Source of the DNA: Hadesarchaea archaeon
GTDB taxonomy: Archaea; Hadarchaeota; Hadarchaeia; Hadarchaeales; Hadarchaeaceae
Assembly: GCA_029259175.1 (NCBI GenBank)
Contig: JAPDJH010000002.1
Span: forward strand, 32,001-96,000
Length of the DNA stretch: 64,000 bases
Direction of reading: 5' to 3'
Part shown: piece by piece, positions 2-44,061 of the stretch
Numbering within the stretch: position 1 is the stretch's first letter
How the letters are laid out: every line of letters begins with the position of its first letter
Translations under genes and position numbers: made by a program
Notes under the pieces: model-generated
Database searches by the model: none
Seen by the model: the letters and a program-made list of their open reading frames with translations, nothing else
What the model was told of the DNA's origin: nothing

Positions 2-721
2 AGAGGGCATAGCGATTCGAGGGTGATTGAGGAGCTGAAATATCTTCGGGAAGAATACAAGATTCAGGAGATAGAGTTCTTGGACGATACCTTTACTTTA
101 AATAAGAGAAGAGCACTGAGAATAGCTAAAAGGATTGTAAAAGAAGGGCTCGATGTTTCGTGGTCTGCCTCCTCGAGGGTCGACCTGTTCACGGATGAAG
201 TTGCTGAAGCTATGAAAAGAGGCGGATGCCACACAATATATTTCGGCATTGAATCCGGTTCCTCAAAGACCCTCGAGTTCATCGACAAGAGGATAACTCC
301 TGAGCAATCGATTTCTGCAGTGAAGAAAGCAAAAAAGCATAAACTCCAAGCCTTAGGAGCATTCATTATAGGATTTCCTGAGGAGAGTAGAGAAGACGTA
401 GAGAAAACGATAAAATTTTCAAAAAAGGTGGGTGTGGATTACGCACAGTTCACCATAGCCACACCCTATCCGGGAACGAGGTTATGGGATTATGCTTTGT
501 CTAAGAAACTTATACGGACTTTTGATTGGAAAAAGTACACCACATTGGATCCGGTGATGAGATTGAAAAATTTCACCACCAAGCAAATAAGGAAGCTCTT
601 TCGGAAGACATACGTGAGCTTCTACCTGCGCCCGTCCTATGTGATTAAAGACCTGATTTTAAGAAAAGGTTTTACGTTTAGAAGGGCTATTTCAGGAATC
701 ATAAAATGGTTTAATCGATAA
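2..721 (+). CDS. B12-binding-type radical SAM protein, C-terminal part (5' truncated by window)
   Basis: Frame open from the window edge; F-x-DDTF, FGIESGS, FIIGFP and ATPYPGT motifs typical of class B radical SAM proteins. Confidence 0.8.
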   Translation, partial: RGHSDSRVIEELKYLREEYKIQEIEFLDDTFTLNKRRALRIAKRIVKEGLDVSWSASSRVDLFTDEVAEAMKRGGCHTIYFGIESGSSKTLEFIDKRITPEQSISAVKKAKKHKLQALGAFIIGFPEESREDVEKTIKFSKKVGVDYAQFTIATPYPGTRLWDYALSKKLIRTFDWKKYTTLDPVMRLKNFTTKQIRKLFRKTYVSFYLRPSYVIKDLILRKGFTFRRAISGIIKWFNR

Positions 722-7234: not shown

Positions 7235-8065
7235 CTAACCGAACACCAAGCTTGCTGCTATTCCAACGAGCAAACCGAAGACCACGTTGAAAATCTTCAC
7301 CAGCACCGAATCCCGTATGGTGTAGGAAAGCAGCGGAAGCATGCCGTGTCCGTCCTGAACCACTGAGCTCGTCAGCAACACGGAAAACGGAATGGCTCCG
7401 TCCGCGTAGAGAAGTACGAACGGGATGTGGGGTCCGGAGCCGGGTATCAGCCCAACTACGGCAGCGGAGAAAATCAGCAGGGGGAGGGGAAGACGTGAGA
7501 TGGTGGGCTCCAAGTTCGGGATGAGGCGGATCACGAGCAGGGCCCCCAGCAACCACGCGAAGAGTTTGGGGAGGTGCTGCTTGATGATGTGGTTGAAAAC
7601 GTGCTCCTTCACGAAGTGGCGGAGCTCGGTGCGCTCACGCTCGATGCGATGAACTTTGATCACGCACTTCTTGTCTCTGGTTATTCCGAATTTCCGAACG
7701 ATCGAGTCCGTCAGGAAACCGCCCAAGATCCCGAGCACAAACAACAGGGCGAACAGCGCCAGCGCAGTCGCAGGAAATTTGGCCAACATCACGAACGCTT
7801 CATCCCCCGAAGTAGAAATCATGCAGGCTGTTATTGCCCCCATGCTCAGGAATCCGTGCACGTAAAGCGAAACGCTGGCAAAAGCCCCAACACAGCCCGG
7901 AGTGGCTCCGAGGAAAGAGGCGAGGAGATACTGCCTTAGCGGTCCTCGGGTCATCCACTTGCTCATGCGCTTCTGGGTCCGGAGTTCGATGTATTCGATC
8001 ACCGTCATCAGAACGAACACTATGGCTAAGATGTGGATGGTTTCGCGCAGGACTTCGATTATCAT
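7235..8065 (-). CDS. DUF2899-like putative Mn/metal transporter
   Basis: LGATPGCVG, STSGDEAFV, GLIPGSGPH, QDGHGMLP; multi-TM; abuts DtxR-family gene. Confidence 0.75.
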   Translation of the reverse strand: MIIEVLRETIHILAIVFVLMTVIEYIELRTQKRMSKWMTRGPLRQYLLASFLGATPGCVGAFASVSLYVHGFLSMGAITACMISTSGDEAFVMLAKFPATALALFALLFVLGILGGFLTDSIVRKFGITRDKKCVIKVHRIERERTELRHFVKEHVFNHIIKQHLPKLFAWLLGALLVIRLIPNLEPTISRLPLPLLIFSAAVVGLIPGSGPHIPFVLLYADGAIPFSVLLTSSVVQDGHGMLPLLSYTIRDSVLVKIFNVVFGLLVGIAASLVFG

Positions 8066-9939: not shown

Positions 9940-10509
9940 TCACCCCCAACGCCCTCGTCCCCCATGTTTTTCGGAATTCCCCGTTCGGCCGACAAACCGC
10001 GTGTAGAAAAGGTGGAAGAGGAGTCCAATCGCCGCTACGCCCGCGAAGGCGAAGAGTATCCTCACTCCCACCACGTACGCTCCGAAAACCGCCAGCCCGC
10101 AGAAGAGCTGTCCCACTTCCACCGTGGTGGTCGCAACGAGCATTGTTATCAGCGGAAGGAATTTCACCCCTCCGTCTTTGAAACCTCTGATTATCGGGTA
10201 TGACACGACGGGACAGGGGGGCAGAACGGACCCCACAATGCCCGCGTTGACGACCCCGCGCGCTTCGCTTCCTCCTTTTCCGAACCACTTGCCGACCCGT
10301 TGGGGGGTGAGCAGGTTTTTTACAGCCGCTCCGACAAAAATCGCGGCGATGAGGGGCAGCATCAGCTTTTCAATTTCCTTCAGGCTTTGGGTTACTGCGC
10401 GCTGAAAAGCACCGGGATCCAGCAGAGCCATACCTGCGTAAAGAATCACTGCTGCAAAGAGAACGGCGCGCAGCCCCCATGTTTCGCCCAGCGATCTCCA
10501 CGAAATCAT
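9940..10509 (-). CDS. Small DUF318-like permease subunit
   Basis: Hydrophobic; GSVLPPCPVVSYP motif. Confidence 0.65.
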   Translation of the reverse strand: MISWRSLGETWGLRAVLFAAVILYAGMALLDPGAFQRAVTQSLKEIEKLMLPLIAAIFVGAAVKNLLTPQRVGKWFGKGGSEARGVVNAGIVGSVLPPCPVVSYPIIRGFKDGGVKFLPLITMLVATTTVEVGQLFCGLAVFGAYVVGVRILFAFAGVAAIGLLFHLFYTRFVGRTGNSEKHGGRGRWG

Positions 10510-10513
10510 TGGC

Positions 10514-11104
10514 TCACCCCAGCAGGAAGTAGACTAAGAATCCCGCCACGAGGGCTGCGAGGTAGGTGAGGGCGATTCTCAGCGCCATGATTCGGTGGTC
10601 GAAATAAGTCAGATCACAGGACAGGTAGCAGGGAAAAGCCAGGCCAGCTCCGAAGAGCATCCCCATGATTCCCGGGAAACCCGCCCCCGCCGCCCACAGC
10701 CCTGCGATCAGTGGATACGAGACAAACGGACAGGCGGGGAGCACACTCCCTATTCCGACCCCAAGCAATACCGCGATGGGCCCTGCCTGTTCTCCCAGAT
10801 ATCCGGCGAGGATTTCTTTGGGCACGAGAGTCACGGCCGCTCCCGCGATGAAGAGCGCCGCGAGAATGAATGGGAAGAGTTTTTTCAGGGTCGAGAACGA
10901 GTCGCGAATGCTCTTTCTTGCCATGGTGGGGCTAGTCAGGCTCAACAGCAGATAAAGAGAAACGCCGAAAACGATCATGACGTGAATGAGGGGATTCTTT
11001 CCAAACCAGAGGGGCACAGTCCCGCGAAGGGGGCCGAGGAAGGCCCAGCTGCCAATCGCCGTGATCGCGATCACACTCATGGTTGCCGCTCTTTTTCGAT
11101 TCAT
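10514..11104 (-). CDS. Small DUF318-like permease subunit
   Basis: Hydrophobic; GSVLPACPFVSYP motif, paralogous to neighbour. Confidence 0.65.
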   Translation of the reverse strand: MNRKRAATMSVIAITAIGSWAFLGPLRGTVPLWFGKNPLIHVMIVFGVSLYLLLSLTSPTMARKSIRDSFSTLKKLFPFILAALFIAGAAVTLVPKEILAGYLGEQAGPIAVLLGVGIGSVLPACPFVSYPLIAGLWAAGAGFPGIMGMLFGAGLAFPCYLSCDLTYFDHRIMALRIALTYLAALVAGFLVYFLLG

Positions 11105-11215
11105 GCGCTCAGTTTATTGCTGTAAATAGGTTAATTTAAGCATTTTGTTTACTAGAAGCGGTTAACAAAAATCCATATAAAGAAAAGCCGAGTGGAATGA
11201 GGGGGGCGGTTAGAG

Positions 11216-12001
11216 GTGAGTGGAGTCTCGGACGTGTACGCCCGCGTCCGCGAGGAGTTCGAGAAGTTGGTCAGAAATCATCAGATCGGCGGCGAACCGG
11301 TCTACTGCGAGGTGCTGGCCAAGGGATTCGTCGGAAAGGCTCCGGCTAGGGATGACATGGTGTATTTCGAGATGCCGTCCTCCGATTACGCCTTGGTGAG
11401 AGGCAAGGAGGTTCTGTTGAGGTGCAGGTTCAGAGACGCGTGGGGGGATGCTTTCACGGATGAGCCGAAACGATACAGGGGCACGGTAGAGGAGGTGATC
11501 CGCTTACCTTTTACCTCCTCCTCCGCCCGAGCCGTGTTTTTCGCCACGCTCAACGCGGTCTGCAGCTCTCTGGGCTTGGTCAGCGGAGGCGTCCACTGTA
11601 AGGAGGGGGATCCGGAGCGGTGCGGCGAAAAGCTGGTCGAACACCTCCGGGCGCAGTTCGGTAAGGAGGTCACGGTTGCGCACATCGGCTACCAGCCAGG
11701 CCACGTGGGGGCGCTGGGCAAATCTTTCAAAACGCTGGTCACCGATCTGGACCCTGAGAACATCGGAAAAGTGAAGTCGGGCGTTCCCATTCTGGATGGT
11801 GGGGAGAACGAGAGCGTGATCCAGAAAGCAGACGTGGTTTGTATAACAGGGAGCGCTCTGGTGAACGGGACGTTTCCGGAGCTGCTCGAGTGGGCCCGCC
11901 GGTATTCGACCGCGGTGCTGGTGTATGGAGTGTCAGCGATCGGGGCCTGCCGCCTTTTGAACCTCCCTTTTTTCTGTCCTTATGTGCGAAAATCTGCTTA
12001 G
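11216..12001 (+). CDS. DUF364 family protein
   Basis: GKEVLL, GDAFTD, ATLNAV, HC....PERC, TGSALVNGT. Confidence 0.78.
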   Translation: MSGVSDVYARVREEFEKLVRNHQIGGEPVYCEVLAKGFVGKAPARDDMVYFEMPSSDYALVRGKEVLLRCRFRDAWGDAFTDEPKRYRGTVEEVIRLPFTSSSARAVFFATLNAVCSSLGLVSGGVHCKEGDPERCGEKLVEHLRAQFGKEVTVAHIGYQPGHVGALGKSFKTLVTDLDPENIGKVKSGVPILDGGENESVIQKADVVCITGSALVNGTFPELLEWARRYSTAVLVYGVSAIGACRLLNLPFFCPYVRKSA

Positions 12002-12056
12002 CGTTTTCGTTCTGTACAGCTTTAATTCCGCAAGAGAAAACAGAAGTGGTGCGACG

Positions 12057-12470
12057 ATGAGCTCTAGAAGGTCCTATCTCACTCCTCGCCAAATCCAAGT
12101 CCTCGAGCTCAAAATTCGGGGAAACAGCGTGTCACAGATTGCGCGAAAGTTAAGAACTAGCCGGTCCAACGTGAGCCGCCTGCTCAAAACGGCCGAAGAA
12201 AACATAGAGCGTGCGAAGAACACTCTGAAGCTTTTGGAAACTCTCGAGTGGCCGGTAAAGGTGGTGGCTCGAAAGAACGCGAACATCTATGAAGTGGCCG
12301 AACGTGTTTTTAAGTCGGCCGATCAGCGCGGGATAAAAATCGCTCACAACTATGCCGAAGTTGTGCGAATCATAACCGAGTTCTTGGGTCGCAGGGGTTT
12401 GAGGCGGAGGAGGGCTTTGCGTTCGTTCGTTGTCGTGGTCAGCGCGGATGGAAAACTCGAGGTCATTTAG
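12057..12470 (+). CDS. Tfx-family DNA-binding protein
   Basis: LTPRQIQVL, TSRSNVS, AEENIERAKNTL, AD..GIKI. Confidence 0.8.
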   Translation: MSSRRSYLTPRQIQVLELKIRGNSVSQIARKLRTSRSNVSRLLKTAEENIERAKNTLKLLETLEWPVKVVARKNANIYEVAERVFKSADQRGIKIAHNYAEVVRIITEFLGRRGLRRRRALRSFVVVVSADGKLEVI

Positions 12471-12512
12471 AACCTGAAAACTTCTTTACTCGAGCAATTC
12501 CAATATTTCTGG

Positions 12513-13157
12513 ATGCGCACGATTACAGTGTCACAGATGAAAAAAATTGAGCAGCGCGCGGAGCGGATTGGGATTTCGCCTCTGCTTCTAATGGAAAATG
12601 CGGGACGGGCAGTTGCGGAAACCGTGCTGAGTTTTCATCCGAAACGGGCTCTGGTCTTAGCTGGATCGGGAAACAATGGGGGAGATGGGTTTGTTGCCGC
12701 TCGGCATCTGCTCTCAGCTGGTGTGAAGGTTCGTGTTTGGTTACTAGGCTCGTTTTCCAAGCTGCGCACACCGGAGACGCGAATCAACGCCCAAGCGCTT
12801 CGCCGGCTCGATCGAAGCGTGATTTCTTGCTTGCGATCCACCAAGGATTTAACACGGCTCAAGCGCGATTTGTTGACCGCGGATGTCGTGATCGACGCGA
12901 TGTTGGGCACCGGAATCAGGGGAGAGCTGCGAGAACCCTTTTTTACGGTCGTGCAGCTGGTCAACTCTGCACGCAAACCGGTCGTGGCCGTTGACGTGCC
13001 GACGGGGGTTGATCCCACGACCGGAGCGATTGCGGGCGCTGCTGTTCGAGCCACCATAACTGTTAGTTTTCATGCTGTCAAGCGGGGATTGCTGAAGGCC
13101 CGTGAGCACGCTGGAGAAATCCGAGTGGCGAGTATCGGGATTCCACCCAACTTGTGA
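12513..13157 (+). CDS. nnrE: NAD(P)H-hydrate epimerase (stand-alone YjeF_N)
   Basis: LMENAG, GSGNNGGDG, DAMLGTG, AVDVPTG. Confidence 0.92.
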   Translation: MRTITVSQMKKIEQRAERIGISPLLLMENAGRAVAETVLSFHPKRALVLAGSGNNGGDGFVAARHLLSAGVKVRVWLLGSFSKLRTPETRINAQALRRLDRSVISCLRSTKDLTRLKRDLLTADVVIDAMLGTGIRGELREPFFTVVQLVNSARKPVVAVDVPTGVDPTTGAIAGAAVRATITVSFHAVKRGLLKAREHAGEIRVASIGIPPNL

Positions 13158-13158
13158 C

Positions 13159-13851
13159 TCACCACATTCGTTTGATCGCCCACACTGCGAAAAACCCGAC
13201 GAGACCGAAGAGAAATCCTAGTGAGTGGCCCAGCACATCGATTCCCGGCGCCATTCCGAAAAACTCTGCGGGGGCCAGGAGCAACCTGAGGGGGATCACG
13301 ATGATGAAGCTCAGATTGAGCGCTCCACGACCTGCTGCACCCCATGCTCGCACGTTCAAACGATCTGATCTGAGCGATTGGAGCGCGCGGAGAAATCTCT
13401 CCCAGTTGCGTGCCGAGCTCAGAGACGCAACGGAATAGGTGATGCCGAGCACAGCATACACCATCCCTGAGGCACCTCGTGATGTTAGATTTGTGGTTCC
13501 TTTGAGTTCCCACATGATGAGTTCGATGGCATTGGTCAGAAATGCAGCTCCAAAGGCGACTAGAAAGAGCATGAGAGTGATGGTTCGTCGATCTTTAGGG
13601 GGGAGAGAGCTCGTGAAAATAATGAAGAAAGCCATCCATGTGAGGAAGCCGTAGACGTTGTTTAGCAAGTGGTCTGGATTTTCGTGAACGAACACCGAAG
13701 TTATTATTCCCCACGGTCGATCGGCGGAAAGGGAGAGAGCGTCTTTCAGCTCTAGGGCCGAGCACAGGCCGAAACAAAGAAAGTTGAGCCCTAGGAAGAC
13801 CAGCACTAGCAGTAAAAGCGGCTCGTACCCTCGGATCGATTTTGTTTTGAT
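13159..13851 (-). CDS. Rhomboid-family intramembrane serine protease (start uncertain: ATC 13851 or GTG 13806)
   Basis: FVH...HLLNN, GASG catalytic Ser, C-terminal H.LG. Confidence 0.7.
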   Translation of the reverse strand: MKTKSIRGYEPLLLLVLVFLGLNFLCFGLCSALELKDALSLSADRPWGIITSVFVHENPDHLLNNVYGFLTWMAFFIIFTSSLPPKDRRTITLMLFLVAFGAAFLTNAIELIMWELKGTTNLTSRGASGMVYAVLGITYSVASLSSARNWERFLRALQSLRSDRLNVRAWGAAGRGALNLSFIIVIPLRLLLAPAEFFGMAPGIDVLGHSLGFLFGLVGFFAVWAIKRMW

Positions 13852-13863
13852 GGTCTCACCCTT

Positions 13864-14724
13864 TCAAGGTTTTCTCGCAATGATTCCGGCGGCGACTTGT
13901 TTTTTCGTTTCAAATCCGGCTTCTTTTAGTCGTTTGTTTACTCCGGCAACCAATTTTTTCCTTCTCCATTTTCCGGGATCGCCCACATAGTGATAGAGCC
14001 ATCCGCCGGGTTTGAGCACTCGGAAGAGTTCGTCGTAGAACGACTTGGAATAGAGCTCGCCGGCAAGGGCGAAACGCGGGGGGTCGTGCAGGATTCGGTG
14101 GAAGTGGTTTTTGGGCAGCTCTGGCACTAGCGTTGCTGCGTTTTCGAGCCACAGGTGGATGTGAGGGGCGGCAAGTTCGTGTGACCAGGGATTCACCTCA
14201 GCCATCTCGAGCACGTGTGGATCGATCTCCACGGTGGTCACCTCGGCTCCCTGCCGGTACGCGATTATGGATGTGTAGCCTAGCCCGGTTCCTATGTCTA
14301 GGATCCGAGCCCCGTCGAATACGCGAAGTGCACGGACCTTTTCCAGAGCGTCCCGCCAAGGCGTTATGTTTTCGATTCGGTGCATGTGGATGCCCGAGAC
14401 TTCTAGGGTGGGTGCCCGATCCGGTCCCACAGCGAGCAGGCGATAGTAGCGCCCATTCGCGTAAAAAGCCACTTTGAACACGTTTCCTTCTTTTACCATG
14501 CACACATCGCCGGTTTTCATCTTGTCGAGGATCTCTAGTTCCACTATCGAACCATCTGGGAACACAACACCACTTTCGTTCAGTTTCACTTCGCTTTTGG
14601 TCAGCCCCAGATCGAGGCTGATTTTGACGTTTGCTTTCTTCTCTCCCAGTGCTCGCTTGAGGACGTCGACCGTTTCGCGCACGAGCAATATGGCGGCTTT
14701 CGGGCGGAATGTGTAGCGCTTCAT
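13864..14724 (-). CDS. Archaeal SAM-dependent methyltransferase (COG2521-like)
   Basis: PTLEVSGIHMHR, LDIGTGLGY, NPWS, HDPPRF..AGELYS. Confidence 0.85.
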   Translation of the reverse strand: MKRYTFRPKAAILLVRETVDVLKRALGEKKANVKISLDLGLTKSEVKLNESGVVFPDGSIVELEILDKMKTGDVCMVKEGNVFKVAFYANGRYYRLLAVGPDRAPTLEVSGIHMHRIENITPWRDALEKVRALRVFDGARILDIGTGLGYTSIIAYRQGAEVTTVEIDPHVLEMAEVNPWSHELAAPHIHLWLENAATLVPELPKNHFHRILHDPPRFALAGELYSKSFYDELFRVLKPGGWLYHYVGDPGKWRRKKLVAGVNKRLKEAGFETKKQVAAGIIARKP

Positions 14725-15866
14725 GCTGTCCCCACGATTTGGAGTGCCAGTTCTATGGCGCGAGTCGGAGAGGGCACGATCACAGCCCCGCACTCTGCTA
14801 GCTTTTTTTCTTGGCTGGTGCGAGAGGGGGTGTCGCCGTCGGTGCCCAGAACGGTTCCGATAACGCTCAGATATCCACCTGTGTCTTCTACGGTTTGCTT
14901 GGCCTTTCTGATGGCTTCTCCTATTATTGTTGCGGGGTTTGGGTGTCCTCCTCGCCCAAGTTCGAGGTCGAATACGATGACGGCCAATCCCAGGTCGCTC
15001 GATTCTTTTATCATTCTGGATGCCAATGGGGCCGGATCCATCAGCAACTCCTGTTCGCCCGTGAATTCGGCGGCGCTCATGTCGACGAGCGCGTGCCCCC
15101 GACTGGAGTGAGGATCCGCCAACCGGTTGCGTGGTTTCAACGGCACATTGGAGTAGGGCGTTTTTCCACGTTTTTCGAGCACGACTTGAGCTTCAGCACA
15201 GAGAAAGCGTCCCGTGTACAGCCCGCGGATGTGTCGCTGACCATAAGCGAGTTCTGCAGATTCGCGCTCTACGATTTTTTTCGCAGCCGTTTCATTGGGA
15301 AGTTGGTGGTTTAGTGCGGAAGCCATCTTTCCGGCCGTTTCGAGTAGGGTTTGAGAGATTCGCCTTGAGGGGAGGTGATCCGGCATACAAAAGAAGCAAG
15401 GTTTATCTAATGTGTTCACGGCTTCCATGATCTTTCGCTCCACCGTTGTGGCCGGAGTGAGGCCCACCACCCCTATGACCTCGACTTTAGGATCCTCGTT
15501 TAGAAATCGAAGCGCTTGGATGGTGCTGCTCCCCGCAATCCTTTGAGATAGATCGCGGGCCCCCACATAGAGAACATGTCTGATCCCCACCGGGGCCAGC
15601 AGAACAGACAAGCCTCTCAGCCCGGAAGTGGTGGTGCCGACGAGCCCGACCGGACCGGGTGGAAGGGCATTCCAGCTCCCGAACCGGAGATCTCCAACTA
15701 TGGAGAAGGAGCACCTGGGCCCCAGAAGCAGTACTTCGCGTTCACCCGCAAGCCGCTTTATCTCGCTTTCCTCTTCGATGGTTAAATCGCAGCGCAGAAC
15801 CACGTGTTTTTTCGAGTTGATGGCCTCGACCGCTTGCGTGCGGCTGTGTGCTTCCGCAACTTCCAT
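14721..15866 (-). CDS. Divergent FdrA-like (acyl-CoA synthetase fold) protein
   Basis: LLLGP.C, GPVGLVG, VGARDLS, IRGLYTGRFLCAE, SN.P, VLGTDGD. Confidence 0.65.
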   Translation of the reverse strand: MEVAEAHSRTQAVEAINSKKHVVLRCDLTIEEESEIKRLAGEREVLLLGPRCSFSIVGDLRFGSWNALPPGPVGLVGTTTSGLRGLSVLLAPVGIRHVLYVGARDLSQRIAGSSTIQALRFLNEDPKVEVIGVVGLTPATTVERKIMEAVNTLDKPCFFCMPDHLPSRRISQTLLETAGKMASALNHQLPNETAAKKIVERESAELAYGQRHIRGLYTGRFLCAEAQVVLEKRGKTPYSNVPLKPRNRLADPHSSRGHALVDMSAAEFTGEQELLMDPAPLASRMIKESSDLGLAVIVFDLELGRGGHPNPATIIGEAIRKAKQTVEDTGGYLSVIGTVLGTDGDTPSRTSQEKKLAECGAVIVPSPTRAIELALQIVGTA

Positions 15867-15901
15867 CGGATAATTGTCGGTGCGGTGGCTTTTTTTGATT
15901 T

Positions 15902-16204
15902 TAGGAAGGGGATTCTCTTCGAAACCCTTGACTCGCAAATACTTTCGCCGGCCTCTCCCCGAAACGAGCTTAAACGGGAAGGCGGAACCGCTTTACGGAA
16001 TGCCCGGGTCAGTGACTCCAGAGAGCGCTTCCCGCACCGTCCGTGGCGCTCTGCGGGAAGCAGGTCACGCGCGGATCAACAAGCCCGGAAAAGAGGTTCC
16101 CGGAGCAGCGCTCCGGGAACGGGGCCGTGCGGGTTCCGGCCCTGAAGGCGGCCTAGAGCCGCCAACTTCGGAGGTCAAGGCTTCCGAGGAGAACCTAGGA
16201 AGGG
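15902..16204 (+). repeat. Structured ~295-bp non-coding element, copy 1 (MITE-like or ncRNA)
   Basis: Aligns along its whole length to 26917-27216; complementary termini; internal hairpins; TAGGAAGGG direct repeats at 15902-15910 and 16196-16204. Confidence 0.85.
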
Positions 16205-24086: not shown

Positions 24087-25436
24087 TCATTGCTGGTTTA
24101 AATTTTTGCGTTTTGCGTACCGGTACATGGCGGCCAGAGCCTTTGCCCCGCGCACCGGATCGGAAAACACTGGTATGCGCTTTTCCGCGAGCTTTCTTTT
24201 TTCCTCCTCTTCTGCTCTGCCACCGCCCAGCATTACCGCGATCACCGGCTTTCCCTTCTTCAAGTGTTTTTCCACCACCTCTGCGATCCCGGGCATCGGA
24301 TCTCCCACAATCGCCAGAACCGAGTCGACCCCCTCCTCCCCCAGCAGGATTTCGAGAGCATCGTCGTACATCTGAGTCGTGGCGCTCCCAGTGAGATCCA
24401 GCGGATTCTTGAAAATGCACTGCGGCGGCAGCTTCTCTTTGAGCCTGTCGACGGTGGCGGACGAGAGATCCACGACTTCGAGCCCGCTCTCCTCGCACGT
24501 GTCCGTTGCCAGGATTCCGCATCCGCCGGAGCTTGTTATGATCACCGTCCGCGGCCCTCGTGGCAGCGGCAACATGGCCAGTGCTTTGCAGTAATCGTAG
24601 AGTTCCTCCACCGAGTACGCCCTTATCAGACCCGCTTGCTTGAACGCGGTGTCGAACACCTGATCCAGCCCCGCCAGCGTGCGCGTGTGCGACTGGGCCG
24701 CTTCCGCCCCCTTCTCCGTCCGCCCGCCTTTCAGCACAACCACCGGCTTGTTTTGTGCAACCTTGCCTGCAGCTTCCAGAAATCTTCGGCCATCACGCAC
24801 GCCCTCAATGTAGAGGGCGACAACCTTCGTTTGGTCGTCGTCCGCGAAGTACTCCAGCAGCTCCGTTTCGTCCACATCGCATTTGTTCCCGAGGGCCACT
24901 TGTTTCGACGTCCCTATTCCTTCGTCTTCAGCCCAACACCCGAGCGCAGCGAAGACAGTCCCGCTTTGAGAAACCACCGAGATCGGGCCGGAGAGCTTGA
25001 CCAGAGGCCAGCTGGCGCACAGCCTGGCAGGCATGCTGTTTATCCCCTGACAGTTGGGCCCAATCACTCTGACATTCGACTTTTTCGCCGTCTTCACGAG
25101 CTCCTGCTCCAGTTTTTCCCCATCCGGCCCGACCTCTCTGAACCCGCCGGAAATAATCACAGCAGCTTTGATCCCCTTCTGCCCGCACTCTTCTATCACC
25201 CTGTTCACAAACTTGGCGGGGACGACGATGATTGCCAGATCCACTTCCCCCGGGATCTGAGTAACCGAGGGATAGCATTTCAGCCCGAGGACTTCGTCGG
25301 CCTTTGGATTGATCGGATAGATCCCGCCCTCAAAACCCGCATCGATGATGTTGCGCAAAATCTCATGCCCCAGCTTGCCCGGCTCACGGGACGCGCCCAC
25401 TACCGCAACTCCTCGTGGCTGGAAGAACTCCTTCAT
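24087..25436 (-). CDS. acdA: ADP-forming acyl-CoA synthetase alpha subunit
   Basis: VAVVGAS, GPNCQG, SQSG, GNKCD, AQSHT phospho-His, NPLDLTG. Confidence 0.88.
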   Translation of the reverse strand: MKEFFQPRGVAVVGASREPGKLGHEILRNIIDAGFEGGIYPINPKADEVLGLKCYPSVTQIPGEVDLAIIVVPAKFVNRVIEECGQKGIKAAVIISGGFREVGPDGEKLEQELVKTAKKSNVRVIGPNCQGINSMPARLCASWPLVKLSGPISVVSQSGTVFAALGCWAEDEGIGTSKQVALGNKCDVDETELLEYFADDDQTKVVALYIEGVRDGRRFLEAAGKVAQNKPVVVLKGGRTEKGAEAAQSHTRTLAGLDQVFDTAFKQAGLIRAYSVEELYDYCKALAMLPLPRGPRTVIITSSGGCGILATDTCEESGLEVVDLSSATVDRLKEKLPPQCIFKNPLDLTGSATTQMYDDALEILLGEEGVDSVLAIVGDPMPGIAEVVEKHLKKGKPVIAVMLGGGRAEEEEKRKLAEKRIPVFSDPVRGAKALAAMYRYAKRKNLNQQ

Positions 25437-26836
25437 TCGATCACCGGCCAGTTGGGCCCGATTCTCAGTCCGCGTCTCGCATCGACTTCCGGCCCTACTC
25501 TGGAGGCCTCCTCGATCACTTTTTCCTCGTCTATGGTGAGTATTTTTCTTTTTTCCATCACGACTCGCCCGTCGATTATTACCGTTTCTACATCGCTCCC
25601 GTTTGCCGCGTATACCAGGGTGGACACCGGGTTGCGAACCGGCACGAGGTGCGATTTCCGCATGTTTACCACTATGACGTCGGCAAGCTTTCCGGGCTCG
25701 ATCGATCCCAGCTCATCGCCCCAAAGCGTGGCTTTCGCCCCGTTGACGGTGGCCATCTCCAACACGCGCTCGGCGGGCATGACGATGGGGTTCAACAAGC
25801 GAGCTTTGTGAATTATGGCTGCCAGCTTCATCTCTCGGATCATGTCGTAGCAGTCGTTGCTCGGACCCCCGTCGCACCCAAGCGCAACATTCACTCCCGC
25901 GTCCAGCATCTCGGGAATCGGGGCGAAGCCGGATGCCAGCTTCAAATTGGAGGCCGGACAGTGGCACACGGTGCCCCCCGTTTCACGCAAGATGGGGAAG
26001 TCTTCCGGTGGCATCCACACGCAGTGCACGTAGATCACCTTCACATCTGGACCCACCAAGTTGCAGTGTTTCATGAACTGCATGGGGGTCATACCAAACT
26101 CGTTGCGCATGTAGCGGATATCGTCCTGGACTTCTGCGAGGTGCAGCGTTATCCCCGTCTGGTACTTGCGGGCGTTTTCTCCGATCTCACGATAGTACTC
26201 CACCGTGGCTCCCCCCGGGGTGCGCGGCCCGAACCAGATGTGAATGCGATTGTTGGCCTTCCCGTGCCACCGTTTGATCATCTGGATGCACTGACGCATC
26301 GCCGTCTCTCCGTCCTCCCGCATGTCCGGATGGATCGCCTCCGGGAAGTCCGCGTATCCAGGGAGGTTCATGAGCTTCTTGCTTATGGCCCCCCTCATTC
26401 CCACTTCCTCCACGGCTCGAGGTACCTCGTCCAGACCGTACTTCCAGTGAAGACTGCTCTCCACGAAGCAAGTGGTACCGGATTTGATCATCTCGATGCA
26501 GCACAGCTTGGCGCTCAGCTCGCCCTCGCGGGGGGTGTAGCTTCCCTGGAGCGGGTGCACCCGCTTGGTCAGCCAATCGACAAGCGAGAGATCGTCCGCA
26601 CACCCCCGCAACAAAGCTTGGGCGAGGTGGACGTGACAGTCCACGAAGCCCGGCAGGATCAAGCGATGGGTACAATTGTATTCACGATCCGCGCGCGGAT
26701 ACTCCTTCACGATGTCAGAGGTTTTTCCGACAGCGACTATGCGGTTTCCATCGATGGCGACTGCGCCGTCCTTGATGATTTCGCGCCGTTCGTTCATGGT
26801 GATTACGGTACCGTGCTTGAGCAAGATGGAAACCAT
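25433..26836 (-). CDS. MtaD/SsnA/TrzA-type amidohydrolase (deaminase)
   Basis: PGFVDCHVH, HLAE, HCPASNLKLASG, LGCDG. Confidence 0.88.
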   Translation of the reverse strand: MVSILLKHGTVITMNERREIIKDGAVAIDGNRIVAVGKTSDIVKEYPRADREYNCTHRLILPGFVDCHVHLAQALLRGCADDLSLVDWLTKRVHPLQGSYTPREGELSAKLCCIEMIKSGTTCFVESSLHWKYGLDEVPRAVEEVGMRGAISKKLMNLPGYADFPEAIHPDMREDGETAMRQCIQMIKRWHGKANNRIHIWFGPRTPGGATVEYYREIGENARKYQTGITLHLAEVQDDIRYMRNEFGMTPMQFMKHCNLVGPDVKVIYVHCVWMPPEDFPILRETGGTVCHCPASNLKLASGFAPIPEMLDAGVNVALGCDGGPSNDCYDMIREMKLAAIIHKARLLNPIVMPAERVLEMATVNGAKATLWGDELGSIEPGKLADVIVVNMRKSHLVPVRNPVSTLVYAANGSDVETVIIDGRVVMEKRKILTIDEEKVIEEASRVGPEVDARRGLRIGPNWPVIE

Positions 26837-26916
26837 ATCAACCCCGTTAATAGACGAATCTCGCTTTAAAAAACTCTCGCCCCAAGTCCCGCGCGCTTCT
26901 GAAAATATTTCTAGAT

Positions 26917-27216
26917 CTAGAGGGGTTCTCTTCGAAACTTTGACCCGCAGATACTTTCGCCTACCCCTCTCCCCGAAACGGGCTTAAAGAGAGAGGTGGA
27001 ACCGCTTTACGGGATGCCCCGGGGCCAGTGACTCCAGTGCGCGCTTCTCGCACCGTCCGTGGCGCTCTGCGGGAAGCGGGATTGCGCGGGTCGACAGGCC
27101 CGGGGAAGAGGTTCCCGGAGCAGCGCTCCGGGAACGGGGCCGTGCGGGTTCCGGCCCTGAAGGCGGCCTAGAGCCGCTAACTTCGGAGGTCAGGGCTTCC
27201 GAAGAGAACCCTAGAG
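26917..27216 (+). repeat. Structured ~295-bp non-coding element, copy 2
   Basis: 72-nt block 27106-27177 identical to 16091-16162; GGGTTCTCTTCG/CGAAGAGAACCC terminal complementarity; CTAGAG direct repeats at 26917-26922 and 27211-27216. Confidence 0.85.
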
Positions 27217-43983: not shown

Positions 43984-44061
43984 GCGGCAGTAGTCTAGCC
44001 TGGTCTAGGACACCAGCCTGCCACGCTGGTGGCGCGGGTTCGAATCCCGCCTGCCGCACCA
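43984..44061 (+). tRNA. tRNA-Gly(GCC), CCA encoded, no intron
   Basis: GCGGCAG/CTGCCGC acceptor stem, CCAGC-CTGCCAC-GCTGG anticodon arm, GGTTCGAATCC T arm, followed by TTTT. Confidence 0.96.

Follow-up and report, generated by a model that had tools for sequence, protein, structure and literature searches.

Two copies of an element of roughly 285 bp lie in the analysed window, a stretch of 64,000 nucleotides of an archaeal contig (C3:32001-96000), and the ORFs that flank both of them are divergently oriented (Table 1). An initial annotation had placed this repeat at 15902-16204 and 26917-27216; the second copy is real, with 88% identity to the first over query positions 8-294 in a search of the genome against itself, and the intervals take in flanking duplications, the element proper occupying 15911-16195 and 26924-27210. 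The same search recovers five short copies (A to E) of 283-287 bp in this 1.3-Mb archaeal genome, the full inventory being these five, one copy of 1177 bp, and one right-end fragment of 73 nt. Terminal inverted repeats of about 23 bp are present in 5/5 short copies, and the six complete elements are flanked by target duplications that agree at 9/9 positions in A, C, E, and the long copy and at 8/9 in D, and that are blurred in B. No ORF is common to the short copies, because they differ from each other by 1-2-nt indels, which agrees with the earlier statement that no credible ORF is present. Their divergence of 9-12% means that transposition activity may be past. The duplicated element is very probably a non-autonomous miniature transposon (MITE), a gutted derivative of a TnpB transposon, and this identification is well supported.

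Table 1. Features of the two window copies (positions counted from the first letter of the window).
Feature	Position	Strand	Basis or remark
Candidate TnpB TAM, TTT directly 5' of the copy A duplication	15899..15901	+	same TTT in empty-site contig
Left 9-bp target-site duplication TAGGAAGGG, copy A	15902..15910	.	single copy in empty allele
Copy A, 285-bp MITE-like element	15911..16195	+	own-genome search, alignment of copies
Left terminal inverted repeat, copy A; tip mutated from GG to GA	15911..15932	+	same repeat flanks IS6-family transposase gene in G046
BRE/TATA-like stretch, putative remnant of tnpB promoter region	15960..15975	+	by eye
Central 10-bp hairpin, copy A; remnant of tnpB RuvC-I coding region	16025..16061	+	BLAST to long-copy 549-586, 87%
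Omega-RNA scaffold (probable), copy A; equals 3' end of tnpB plus right end of 1177-bp element	16090..16195	+	96% identity
Helix P1, 11 bp, copy A	16095..16120	+	covariation, 30 family members
Helix P2, 6-7 bp, copy A	16121..16143	+	covariation, 30 family members
Helix P3, copy A; long-copy counterpart has tnpB stop codon in loop	16147..16163	+	alignment, by-eye comparison
Terminal hairpin, copy A; partly right inverted repeat; then AGAACC and flank	16166..16189	+	
Right terminal inverted repeat, copy A	16173..16195	+	
Right 9-bp target-site duplication TAGGAAGGG, copy A; also predicted guide start (16196 to about 16215)	16196..16204	.	
Copy B, 287 bp	26924..27210	+	missing at syntenic locus of G042
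Left inverted repeat, copy B	26924..26945	+	
Central hairpin, copy B	27041..27077	+	
P1, P2, P3, and terminal hairpin, copy B (27110..27204)	27110-27135, 27136-27158, 27162-27178, 27181-27204	+	
Right inverted repeat, copy B	27188..27210	+	
CTAGAG, also at 26917-26922; blurred duplication of copy B beside CTAGAT/CTAGAG tandem	27211..27216	.	

An unoccupied allele of copy A is found in a contig from a public DNA run of another study (X8), which joins 15893 to 16196 and thereby skips 302 nt; it retains a single TAGGAAGGG after GATTT and has eight other differences in 587 nt, corresponding to a 98.6% identical allele. This comparison of empty sites in public DNA runs covers copy A only, of the six sites. 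Similarly, copy B is missing from the syntenic locus of a genome of the same genus (G042), and a search of 45 other genomes of the same family gave no real match, with three of the 45 yielding only 31-37-nt matches (E 6e-4 to 8e-4). In view of the terminal inverted repeats, the 9-bp duplications, and the empty site in another population, this is a mobile element; it also carries a real conserved RNA module. The initial inference of an RNA-structured mobile element thus came close, and that of an unclassified large ncRNA running from end to end did not hold.

On another contig, outside the window, an element of 1177 bp has the same ends as the short copies and encodes an intact TnpB, the only intact cognate TnpB in the genome, and, according to the alignments, the short copies arose from it by internal deletion. 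Its ORF of 356 aa matches PF07282 with 70.8 bits and the guided_TnpB model NF040570 with 155.7 bits (cut-off 100); the invariant residues D151, E285, and D319 are kept together with a CxxC..CxxC (zinc finger) motif, and a G replaces the canonical RuvC-II E, as in the RuvC-II-rearranged type. The last ~108 nt of the short copies match the 3' end of tnpB and the right end, which is where the omega-RNA of TnpB lies; identity to these 108 nt of the parent is 94-96% in four of the five copies, and copy C is 91% identical over 117 nt. In the long copy, the omega-RNA region overlaps the tnpB stop codon and extends to the right end. By its sequence, this segment of the short copies is identified as the probable omega-RNA scaffold of TnpB, consisting of P1-P3 together with a terminal hairpin directly adjoining the right end. 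The scaffold is the most strongly conserved portion of the short copies, and their middle is debris of the tnpB gene.

Within the TnpB family, helices P1 and P2 have been maintained by covarying substitutions, in the orientation that is sense for tnpB (+). Among 30 family sequences, 90.2% of the 509 cells in these two helices are paired, against 75.4 ± 1.1% in shuffled alignments (0/500 as high) and 33.6-55.8% in slid controls, and 87 cells show double changes, against 27.9 ± 4.7 in the shuffles (again 0/500 as high). On the + strand of this wider family, G-U cells outnumber A-C cells by 52 to 15, or by 37 to 8 with one row per lineage. By eye, the changes in P3 between the genome of the window (G000) and G046, a genome of the same order, preserve pairing, and the terminal hairpin of G046 is an analogous one made from another repeat. 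Neither the window copies nor the long copy, the copy from G046, or a relative with canonical ends matched an Rfam family, whether at gathering or at permissive E-values; omega-RNA is a known class, and the family found here has no Rfam model.

The strand evidence for the scaffold comes only from this wider family. The initial annotation had read the strand from a G-U bias between the two window copies, which indeed show 20 G-U against 7 A-C cells on their RNAalifold structure; this bias is uninformative as to strand, because the minus strand folds as well (consensus energy -116.1 against -114.3 kcal/mol) and, when its own structure is used, G-U predominates there too (67 against 24). The z-scores of single copies are modest and no better for the + strand (copy A, -2.60 on + and -3.70 on -; copy B, -5.06 on +), and within the 3' module of the five copies the stem polymorphisms, 7 G-U against 3 A-C cells, are not significant.

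These folds also bear on the earlier idea of a free-standing, unclassified large structured or ribozyme-like ncRNA of ~295 nt with paired ends, an explanation that is largely refuted and retains hardly any probability. The internal stems once listed for it are in the sequence and are recovered in MFE and consensus folds, the folding energies are low, and, as had been stated, the element has neither a tRNA nor an Rfam match; in a scan of the whole window, tRNA-Gly at 43984-44058 is the only gathering-level match, and the best matches in E-value mode are at chance level (E 1.5 and 2.1). However, although the pairing sequences at the ends exist as described, they are transposon terminal inverted repeats common to a transposase-bearing insertion sequence and flanked by duplications, and not the closing stem of an RNA. 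Moreover, the element is missing from close relatives and from the nearly identical allele described above, the left end is its least conserved part, the minus strand folds as well, and only 2/96 predicted pairs are changed on both sides among the five copies. When archaeal genomes are annotated, similar "structured RNA" repeats of ~285 bp should be read as TnpB-derived MITEs.

The ends point to a vehicle other than that of typical TnpB elements. In G046, the interval L143:346-1533 carries the same repeats, a 9-bp duplication GATCGTAGC, and a gene for a 293-aa DDE_Tnp_IS240 protein (PF13610, 46.5 bits; cut-off 27), so that, to judge from the sequence, the ends appear to be those of an IS6-family (DDE_Tnp_IS240) insertion sequence that is intact in G046. 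The repeats have GG tips, and by eye their inner words CTCTT and GAAA are each one letter off the IS6 motifs cTGTt and caaa; the duplication is 9 bp, and not the 8 bp of IS6, in the TnpB element, in the short copies, and in the transposase-bearing copy. The 90.9% complete assembly of the window's genome contains no intact transposase with these repeats, only a 116-bp IS remnant. As previously noted, the window itself lacks a transposase, with no match to the DDE_Tnp_1, DDE_Tnp_IS240, or TnpB-TNB families inside C3:32001-96000; the matches on C3 lie outside it, at 10172-13488 and 99291-99821. Candidate partners elsewhere were rejected on their ends: that of an IS6-type gene cut by a contig edge (C11:1-496) is different, and those of the PF01609 transposases on the small contigs C19 and C23 and at C3:99291 are unrelated. 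None of the nine largest repeat regions of the genome holds a transposase, nor does the surrounding of a solo repeat at C2:150013, which adjoins HEPN and phage-integrase genes. For G046's own repeat, GCTTTGCACAAAAAT, a by-eye comparison with the listed elements of that genome gave no transposase-bearing partner among 21 matches; one match at C32:2864, and possibly another at C3:5798, was not traced to a listed G046 element.

Canonical IS1341-like relatives (L035/36, L085/88, L157-165) encode TnpB proteins that are 37-49% identical to the one described here and share P1 and P2, and the L086 protein reaches 53% over a shorter match. Their left-end interior sequence resembles that of the copies in G002 and G004; they start after motifs like TTAAC or TTTCAC, and their terminal hairpin is followed by GTGTCAA or GTAGTTCAC. 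Unlike the present element, they lack both inverted repeats and a duplication. In a search for inverted repeats, local alignment of the ends of distant relatives scored 16-23 at seven genome loci and 18-21 at 9/10 metagenome loci, against 30-31 for two positive controls, and the score of 34 at L088 reflects a palindromic hairpin without duplication. Of ten ORFs adjoining the distant TnpB relatives, seven belong to housekeeping families and three to no family, with no transposase among them.

The closest published parallels are partial. PATEs, which are protein-less derivatives of IS200/IS605 elements, "often encode omega-RNAs" that act in trans (Meers et al. 2023 preprint, PMC10055086). As described in the available text of that preprint, they resemble the short copies in being gene-less derivatives with both ends and the omega-RNA region, for which TnpB would have to be supplied in trans by another copy. 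They have asymmetric hairpin ends, no duplication, and TAM-adjacent insertion through a Y1 transposase (PMC10055086), whereas the element here has true inverted repeats, IS6-type 9-bp duplications, and no Y1 transposase, and for the first two reasons it does not fall within IS200/IS605 (IS1341 group) or the PATEs. IS630, ISL2, and IS1031 elements produce duplications of 2-3 bp, unlike the IS6-type partner with its 9-bp duplication. These three are the DDE partners of TnpB named in the available text of Altae-Tran et al. (2023, PMC10691335) and a review (PMC13565253), and the supplementary tables of the former may list the present clade. DDE-linked and solo TnpBs with inverted repeats are on record there; like them, the present tnpB has an inverted-repeat end no more than 250 bp away and a rearranged catalytic site, and, as with the solo tnpB copies, its ends are common with transposase-bearing elements by which it was presumably mobilised in trans (PMC10691335).

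The IS6 family, as far as covered by the available text of its review (Varani et al. 2021, PMC7986276), shares with the present element short inverted repeats with GG tips, and the partner transposase is of the DDE_Tnp_IS240 type. The repeats of IS6 are 15-20 bp long and have cTGTt and caaa motifs (PMC7986276). In the majority of IS6 members, the duplications are 8 bp and the IS lengths 700-890 bp; two IS6 MITEs (227 and 336 bp) are on record, and one passenger gene is given, in one member (PMC7986276). The present case differs in its 9-bp duplications, a partner IS of 1188 bp, and a cargo of tnpB and its RNA. TnpB is mentioned 0 times in that review, and a literature search on the IS6 family, TnpB, and archaea found no such association in titles and the starts of abstracts.

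With these ends and this cargo, the overall best explanation, held at a probability of roughly 60%, is an IS6-ended TnpB MITE whose short copies serve as guide-RNA genes. A TnpB/omega-RNA module of a canonical IS1341-like element would have been captured between IS6-type ends and then, like its gutted copies, moved in trans by an IS6-type transposase. The short copies would each be a protein-less, trans-acting guide-RNA gene, with transcription starting in the tnpB promoter region that they retain and running over the right end into the duplication and flank, which would form the guide. By eye, copy A 15960..15975 corresponds to an A/T-rich box that precedes the tnpB start codon (ATG) by ~30 nt, both in the long copy and in G046, and the guide role of 16196 to about 16215 is predicted from the TnpB omega-RNA architecture in the available texts of PMC10055086 and PMC10691335. 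TnpB from the single full-length copy might cut any allele without the insertion, at TTT followed by the duplicated 9 bp and flank, after which recombination with a chromosome that has the insertion would re-establish the element or let it spread. A restoring role of TnpB is less obvious, however, because copy-in transposition is described for IS6 elements.

The proposed cut presupposes a target-adjacent motif. Since the guide must start inside the 9-bp duplication, the TAM must be just outside it, which is precisely the position of TTT, on one side only. In a register chosen after inspection of the counts, and invariably on the side of the left end, T occupies positions -12 to -10 in five, five, and five of the six G000 elements and positions -14 to -12 in 10, 11, and 11 of the 11 sites in G046. 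An exact TTT is lacking at copy B and at the long copy. Canonical-ended relatives also start after T-rich motifs (TTAAC, TTTCAC). That TTT is the TnpB target-adjacent motif and that the short copies function as guide-RNA genes at present has, on these sequences, a chance a little below even. Alternatively, TTT might reflect a target preference of the transposase or insertion into the A/T-rich TATA-box regions of archaeal promoters. All sites are indeed A/T-rich and promoter-like, which could account for part of the T-richness, several have TATA-like words just upstream, and both window copies sit between divergent ORFs. Target preferences of DDE transposases are usually symmetric. This alternative is unlikely given that the motif has one fixed register, on the left-end side only, with no mirrored AAA opposite, and that by eye 0/4 ends of TnpB-less IS6-type copies have TTT, a very small sample. 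A tentative reading, to which rather less than even odds are given, goes further in holding that TnpB and its omega-RNA left an IS605-type vehicle and now ride an IS6-type DDE transposon, with gutted copies as dispersed guides for one TnpB in trans and TTT as the TAM; an oriented TTT serving as TAM would mean that which insertions survive depends on filtering by the nuclease and not on the transposase's choice of target.

Whether the short copies act at all is contested by a further explanation, in which they are dead MITEs whose helices are inherited omega-RNA debris, with uneven conservation produced by gene conversion or chance. It accords with a genome that lacks a matching transposase and with the divergence of the copies. 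The RNA-library signal is weak as well: contigs cover copy A at 15777-15968 and 15881-16097 and the last 108 nt of the long copy into its flank, both at a depth of 2-3 like that of their neighbours, and in both cases they are strandless with DNA carry-over possible. In addition, most deletion derivatives in G046 are without P1/P2, so that survival in that genome does not require the scaffold to be kept. On the other hand, variation among the five short copies is uneven, with 15/104 variable columns in the 3' module against 60/186 in the 5' part (Fisher p 8e-4) and 5/31 in the right hairpin and repeat against 12/24 in the left repeat; the 3' module and right repeat are thus 2-3 times less variable than the rest and less variable than the left repeat. 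The central hairpin varies in only 4/46 columns and differs in the long copy, and conversion from the long copy therefore does not explain it; family-wide, it yields only a 5-bp consensus of -3.15 kcal/mol. The genome still encodes an intact TnpB with the full set of catalytic residues, and an orientation-specific TTT is hard to account for in a dead element. On balance, inert relics are judged unlikely, with an appreciable residual probability.

A role outside transposition was weighed too, in which promoter-region copies would guide TnpB to bind, and not cut, and so tune neighbouring genes. The position between divergent ORFs and TnpB-derived repressors described in the available text of PMC10705468 speak for such an exapted regulator, which is nevertheless highly improbable, as the catalytic D, E, and D are all preserved in TnpB, the guide's own locus has no TTT beside the full-length match, and the copies are polymorphic insertions that are not fixed.

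To our knowledge, the benefit of TnpB to transposons has been worked out only for IS200/IS605 elements. In these, the target motif of the transposase is the TAM of the nuclease, and excision is scarless. Because the putative promoter, the scaffold, and the guide position are all retained in the protein-less copies, one nuclease may serve several guides, which, if true, would be a natural one-nuclease, many-guides arrangement outside CRISPR. The IS6-ended element offers a concrete and testable case of an RNA-guided nuclease coupled to a DDE transposon, and the same question is raised by eukaryotic Fanzor. According to the available text of Bao and Jurka (2013, PMC3627910), Fanzor is likewise a TnpB homologue carried as cargo in inverted-repeat transposons with target duplications; it differs from the present case in its eukaryotic and viral hosts, larger proteins, and other transposase superfamilies.

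The window's own genome (G000; 1.31 Mb in 23 contigs, 90.9% complete) was searched with copy A, the first of the two duplicated stretches, and was found to hold five short copies of 283–287 bp each, together with a right-end fragment and a long element bounded by three matches on contig C6 (see table). All six complete elements start with GGTTCTCTTCGRAAC and end in its reverse complement, over ~23 bp, and the direct repeats that flank them are 9 bp long. Perfect duplications are TAGGAAGGG (copy A), CATCCCATC, TCAGCCTCT and TAACTAGCC (long copy); that of copy D matches at 8 of 9 positions, and copy B shows no clear duplication, just CTAGAG next to a local tandem. This CTAGAT/CTAGAG tandem left of copy B (window 26905-26923) blurs the duplication and shifts the TTT motif discussed below 6 nt away. 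The two stretches of the initial annotation (15902-16204 and 26917-27216) are real copies; because repeats and flanking duplications frame the elements, its coordinates run from duplication to duplication, so that the element lies where it was placed but both duplications had been included in its span, and the ends that were taken to pair in an RNA are terminal inverted repeats. Both window copies lie between divergent ORFs, 14721-15867 (-)/16234-16671 (+) and 25433-26836 (-)/27243-27851 (+), at most ~45 nt from the probable start codon of the gene on the left; the DNA there is A/T-rich and promoter-like.

Copies, RNA helices, variability among the five short copies, and the IS6-type relative (C2, C3, C4 and C6 are contigs of G000)
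Feature	Location	Strand	Remarks
Copy A	C3:47911-48195		own-genome search
Copy B	C3:58924-59210		own-genome search
Short copy	C4:30186-30470		own-genome search
Short copy	C4:115502-115788		own-genome search
Short copy	C2:184207-184491		own-genome search
Right-end fragment	C6:61329-61401		73 nt; own-genome search
Long element	C6:24883-26059		1177 bp; own-genome search
P1	GUUCCCGGAGC/GCUCCGGGAAC	+	in scaffold stretch
P2	GGGCCG/CGGCCC	+	in scaffold stretch
P3	GGCGGC/GCCGCC	+	tnpB stop codon in loop
Terminal hairpin	CUUCGGAGG/CUUCCGAAG	+	3' arm within right inverted repeat; then AGAACC and flank
Left repeat			12/24 columns variable
Columns 61-112			21/52 variable
Columns 159-186			14/28 variable
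Central hairpin	window 16025-16061, 27041-27077		4/46 columns variable
P1-P3			10/73 columns variable
Terminal hairpin and right repeat			5/31 columns variable
IS of G046	L143:346-1533		1188 bp; same ~25-nt repeats as G000 type; 9-bp duplication GATCGTAGC

The long element contains one ORF of 356 aa, which scores 70.8 bits against the Cas12f1-like TNB domain and 155.7 bits against the NCBIfam 'RNA-guided endonuclease TnpB family' (cut-off 100), and reaches a best E of 7.7e-17 against solved Cas12f and TnpB chains. In an eight-member alignment of the TnpB family, no variation is seen at the RuvC-I aspartate, glutamate 285, the RuvC-III aspartate or the four zinc-finger cysteines, and all members have glycine where RuvC-II canonically has glutamate; this is the 'rearranged' type of TnpB presented in PMC10691335. 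The short copies match the long element at three separate segments, namely positions 1-59 (81-90% identity), positions 549-586 (87% in three of the five copies; part of the sequence that codes for RuvC-I) and the last 108 nt, 1070-1177 (94-96% in four copies; copy C matches 1061-1177 at 91%), and are therefore patchwork internal-deletion derivatives of this parent. Further tnpB copies have left remains before the window start, at C3:13312-13488 and C3:10172-10258, where fragments in open frames of 127 and 83 aa match the TNB domain.

The parent's last 108 nt begin ~70 nt ahead of the tnpB stop codon and reach the right end, a position that TnpB omega-RNAs occupy (PMC10055086, PMC10691335); the structured 3' part of the element is the omega-RNA scaffold. 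Helices P1, P2 and P3, which the initial annotation had listed as internal stems, are present and all fall within this stretch. TnpB relatives (32-63% identity) were drawn from genome and metagenome collections, and their 3' ends keep P1 and P2 in different letters. Across an alignment of 30 of 34 references (one spurious window anchor and loci L039, L086 and L103, out of register, were dropped), 90.2% of 509 cells in the 17 pairs of P1 and P2 are paired, against 75.4±1.1% in shuffles, and 87 cells are changed on both sides, against 27.9±4.7, with 0 of 500 shuffles reaching either value; both-side changes occur in 12 of the 17 pairs, and sliding the partner by 1-3 columns lowers the paired cells to 33.6-55.8%, figures that overstate independence, as kinship links the rows and part of the region codes for protein. 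In the family alignment 52 cells are G-U and 15 are A-C (37 and 8 when each lineage is limited to a single row), which puts the RNA on the tnpB-sense (+) strand. A G-U bias between the copies had been offered as the strand signal; the strand comes from the TnpB family instead, since the five copies alone give none (consensus -114.3 kcal/mol on the + strand, -116.1 on the - strand) and only 2 of their 96 pairs changed on both sides. As anticipated, the element matches no Rfam family; a tRNA-Gly (GCC) at window 43984-44058 is the sole Rfam or ARAGORN match in the window.

Conservation among the five copies is uneven, both between the 5' and 3' parts (Fisher p 8e-4) and between the central hairpin and the remaining 5' part (p 4.5e-5). 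Equal conservation of both repeats would be expected if transposition alone mattered, so the extra conservation towards the RNA side suggests that the RNA is constrained; such unevenness could also have come from gene conversion. The central hairpin, a RuvC-I coding remnant, varies less than any other part of the short copies; its counterpart in the long copy (L006:980-1033) forms an 11-bp stem in different letters, and 17 relatives share just a 5-bp core at this point of the coding sequence, with a weak consensus of -3.15 kcal/mol.

The element is mobile. A search of 45 further genomes from the family gave no real DNA match to it: three yielded only 31-37-nt matches (E 6e-4 to 8e-4), and the three same-genus genomes yielded none at all; in G042, of the same genus, the genes around copy B are syntenic, the spacer is ~350 bp shorter and the element is absent. 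Mobility shows most directly in X8, a public DNA run from a different study: in one of its contigs, of 587 nt, window 15576-15893 is joined to 16196 with 302 nt skipped and seven other letters in between, giving an allele of ...GATTT, a single TAGGAAGGG and the right flank, with 8 further differences over the 587 nt. This allele is the empty site of copy A, either never filled or precisely vacated.

With elements oriented by tnpB sense and positions counted from the left end, T occupies -12, -11 and -10, just 5' of the duplication, in 5/6, 5/6 and 5/6 elements of G000; TTT is exact in copies A, C, D and E, reads CTT at the long copy and is displaced by the tandem at copy B. G046 is a Hadesarchaea MAG from the same order; there, positions -14, -13 and -12 are T in 10/11, 11/11 and 11/11 sites, counted without L070 and L073 (whose flank is common with L131) and without scripted pairs not credible as elements. 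Background T at the other 17 upstream positions is ~0.37 (G000) and ~0.29 (G046), and odds calculated by hand, uncorrected for register choice, are ~1e-4 for G000 and far less for G046. No mirrored AAA is found on the right side of the sites in either genome, and by eye TTT is found at 0/4 ends of TnpB-less IS6-type copies. An empty allele would carry TTT directly 5' of the sequence which, in a filled allele, comes after the right end; this is the geometry needed for a TnpB target-adjacent motif and guide, and the empty allele of copy A in X8 shows it.

The data show the anatomy, parentage and mobility of the element, its conserved RNA helices with their strand, and an IS6-type partner elsewhere; the mechanism built on them is a proposal. 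In it, a promoter-like box kept at 15960-15975 would drive transcription of the short copies across the scaffold and on into the flank; the TnpB of the C6 copy may then load their RNAs in trans, and TTT-flanked empty alleles would be cut and repaired from a filled chromosome copy. Possible signs of expression are four contigs from RNA libraries: one of 192 nt spans the left junction of copy A without mismatch, a second (217 nt) covers 15881-16097, and two more join the scaffold of the long copy to its flank. All are of depth 2-3, could come from either strand and may reflect DNA carry-over. The long-copy contigs could equally well stem from antisense transcription, because the convergent SRP54 gene there stops 4 nt past that copy's right end. 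Protein-less IS605 derivatives keeping omega-RNAs (PMC10055086) and TnpBs in inverted-repeat DDE elements with solo copies presumably moved in trans (PMC10691335) are already in print.

Distant TnpB relatives are canonical IS1341-like elements, which start after TTAAC/TTTCAC-like motifs, end in a hairpin followed by GTGTCAA or GTAGTTCAC, have neither inverted repeats nor duplication, and have no transposase among their neighbours. By eye, the interior next to the left end is still similar between the G000 element and same-family copies in genomes G002 and G004. Among the relatives compared, inverted repeats with duplications occur in two lineages only, G000 and G046 (by coordinates one genome with handle G060). 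The TnpB of the G046 element is 63% identical; the repeat of that element (GCTTTGCACAAAAAT) differs, and many deletion derivatives accompany it. These include a ~300-bp family with an inverted internal segment (L070, L072, L073, L074; ~301-306 bp) and ~150-bp minis without P1/P2 (L130-L132; 146-178 bp); one flank is common to L070, L073 and L131, which suggests recombination between copies or filled-site duplication.

A collection scan for the G000-type repeat gave three matches in G046, one of them the IS at L143, which encodes a 293-aa DDE_Tnp_IS240 (IS6-family) protein (46.5 bits, cut-off 27); this IS6-type partner is left in G000 only as a 116-bp remnant, C2:149898-150013 (L113 ~7899-8014; 86%, with one perfect copy of the inverted repeat). 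In an IS6 review (PMC7986276), GG tips, 8-bp duplications and two MITEs are described and TnpB is not mentioned; the duplication here is 9 bp. Another review (PMC13565253) gives ISL2, IS630 and IS1031 as TnpB-linked elements, and a literature search outside the PMC10691335 supplements found no paper on TnpB linked to IS6-type ends. Two other candidate partners in G000 were rejected: an IS6-type gene at C11:1-496 (DDE_Tnp_IS240, 47.9 bits; cut by the contig start), which has a different end and lacks the element's repeat after its stop codon, and a ~450-aa DDE_Tnp_1 transposase on C19, whose ends are unrelated to the element's repeats. C19 (1458 bp) and C51 of G046 (1358 bp) are two whole small contigs that encode such a transposase, with near-identical starts, a likeness that reflects either a shared, recently exchanged IS or binning overlap. 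Neighbours of the 116-bp remnant are a HEPN-domain gene on one side and, on the other, an ORF without a recognised family; a gene of the phage-integrase family (616 aa) is close by.
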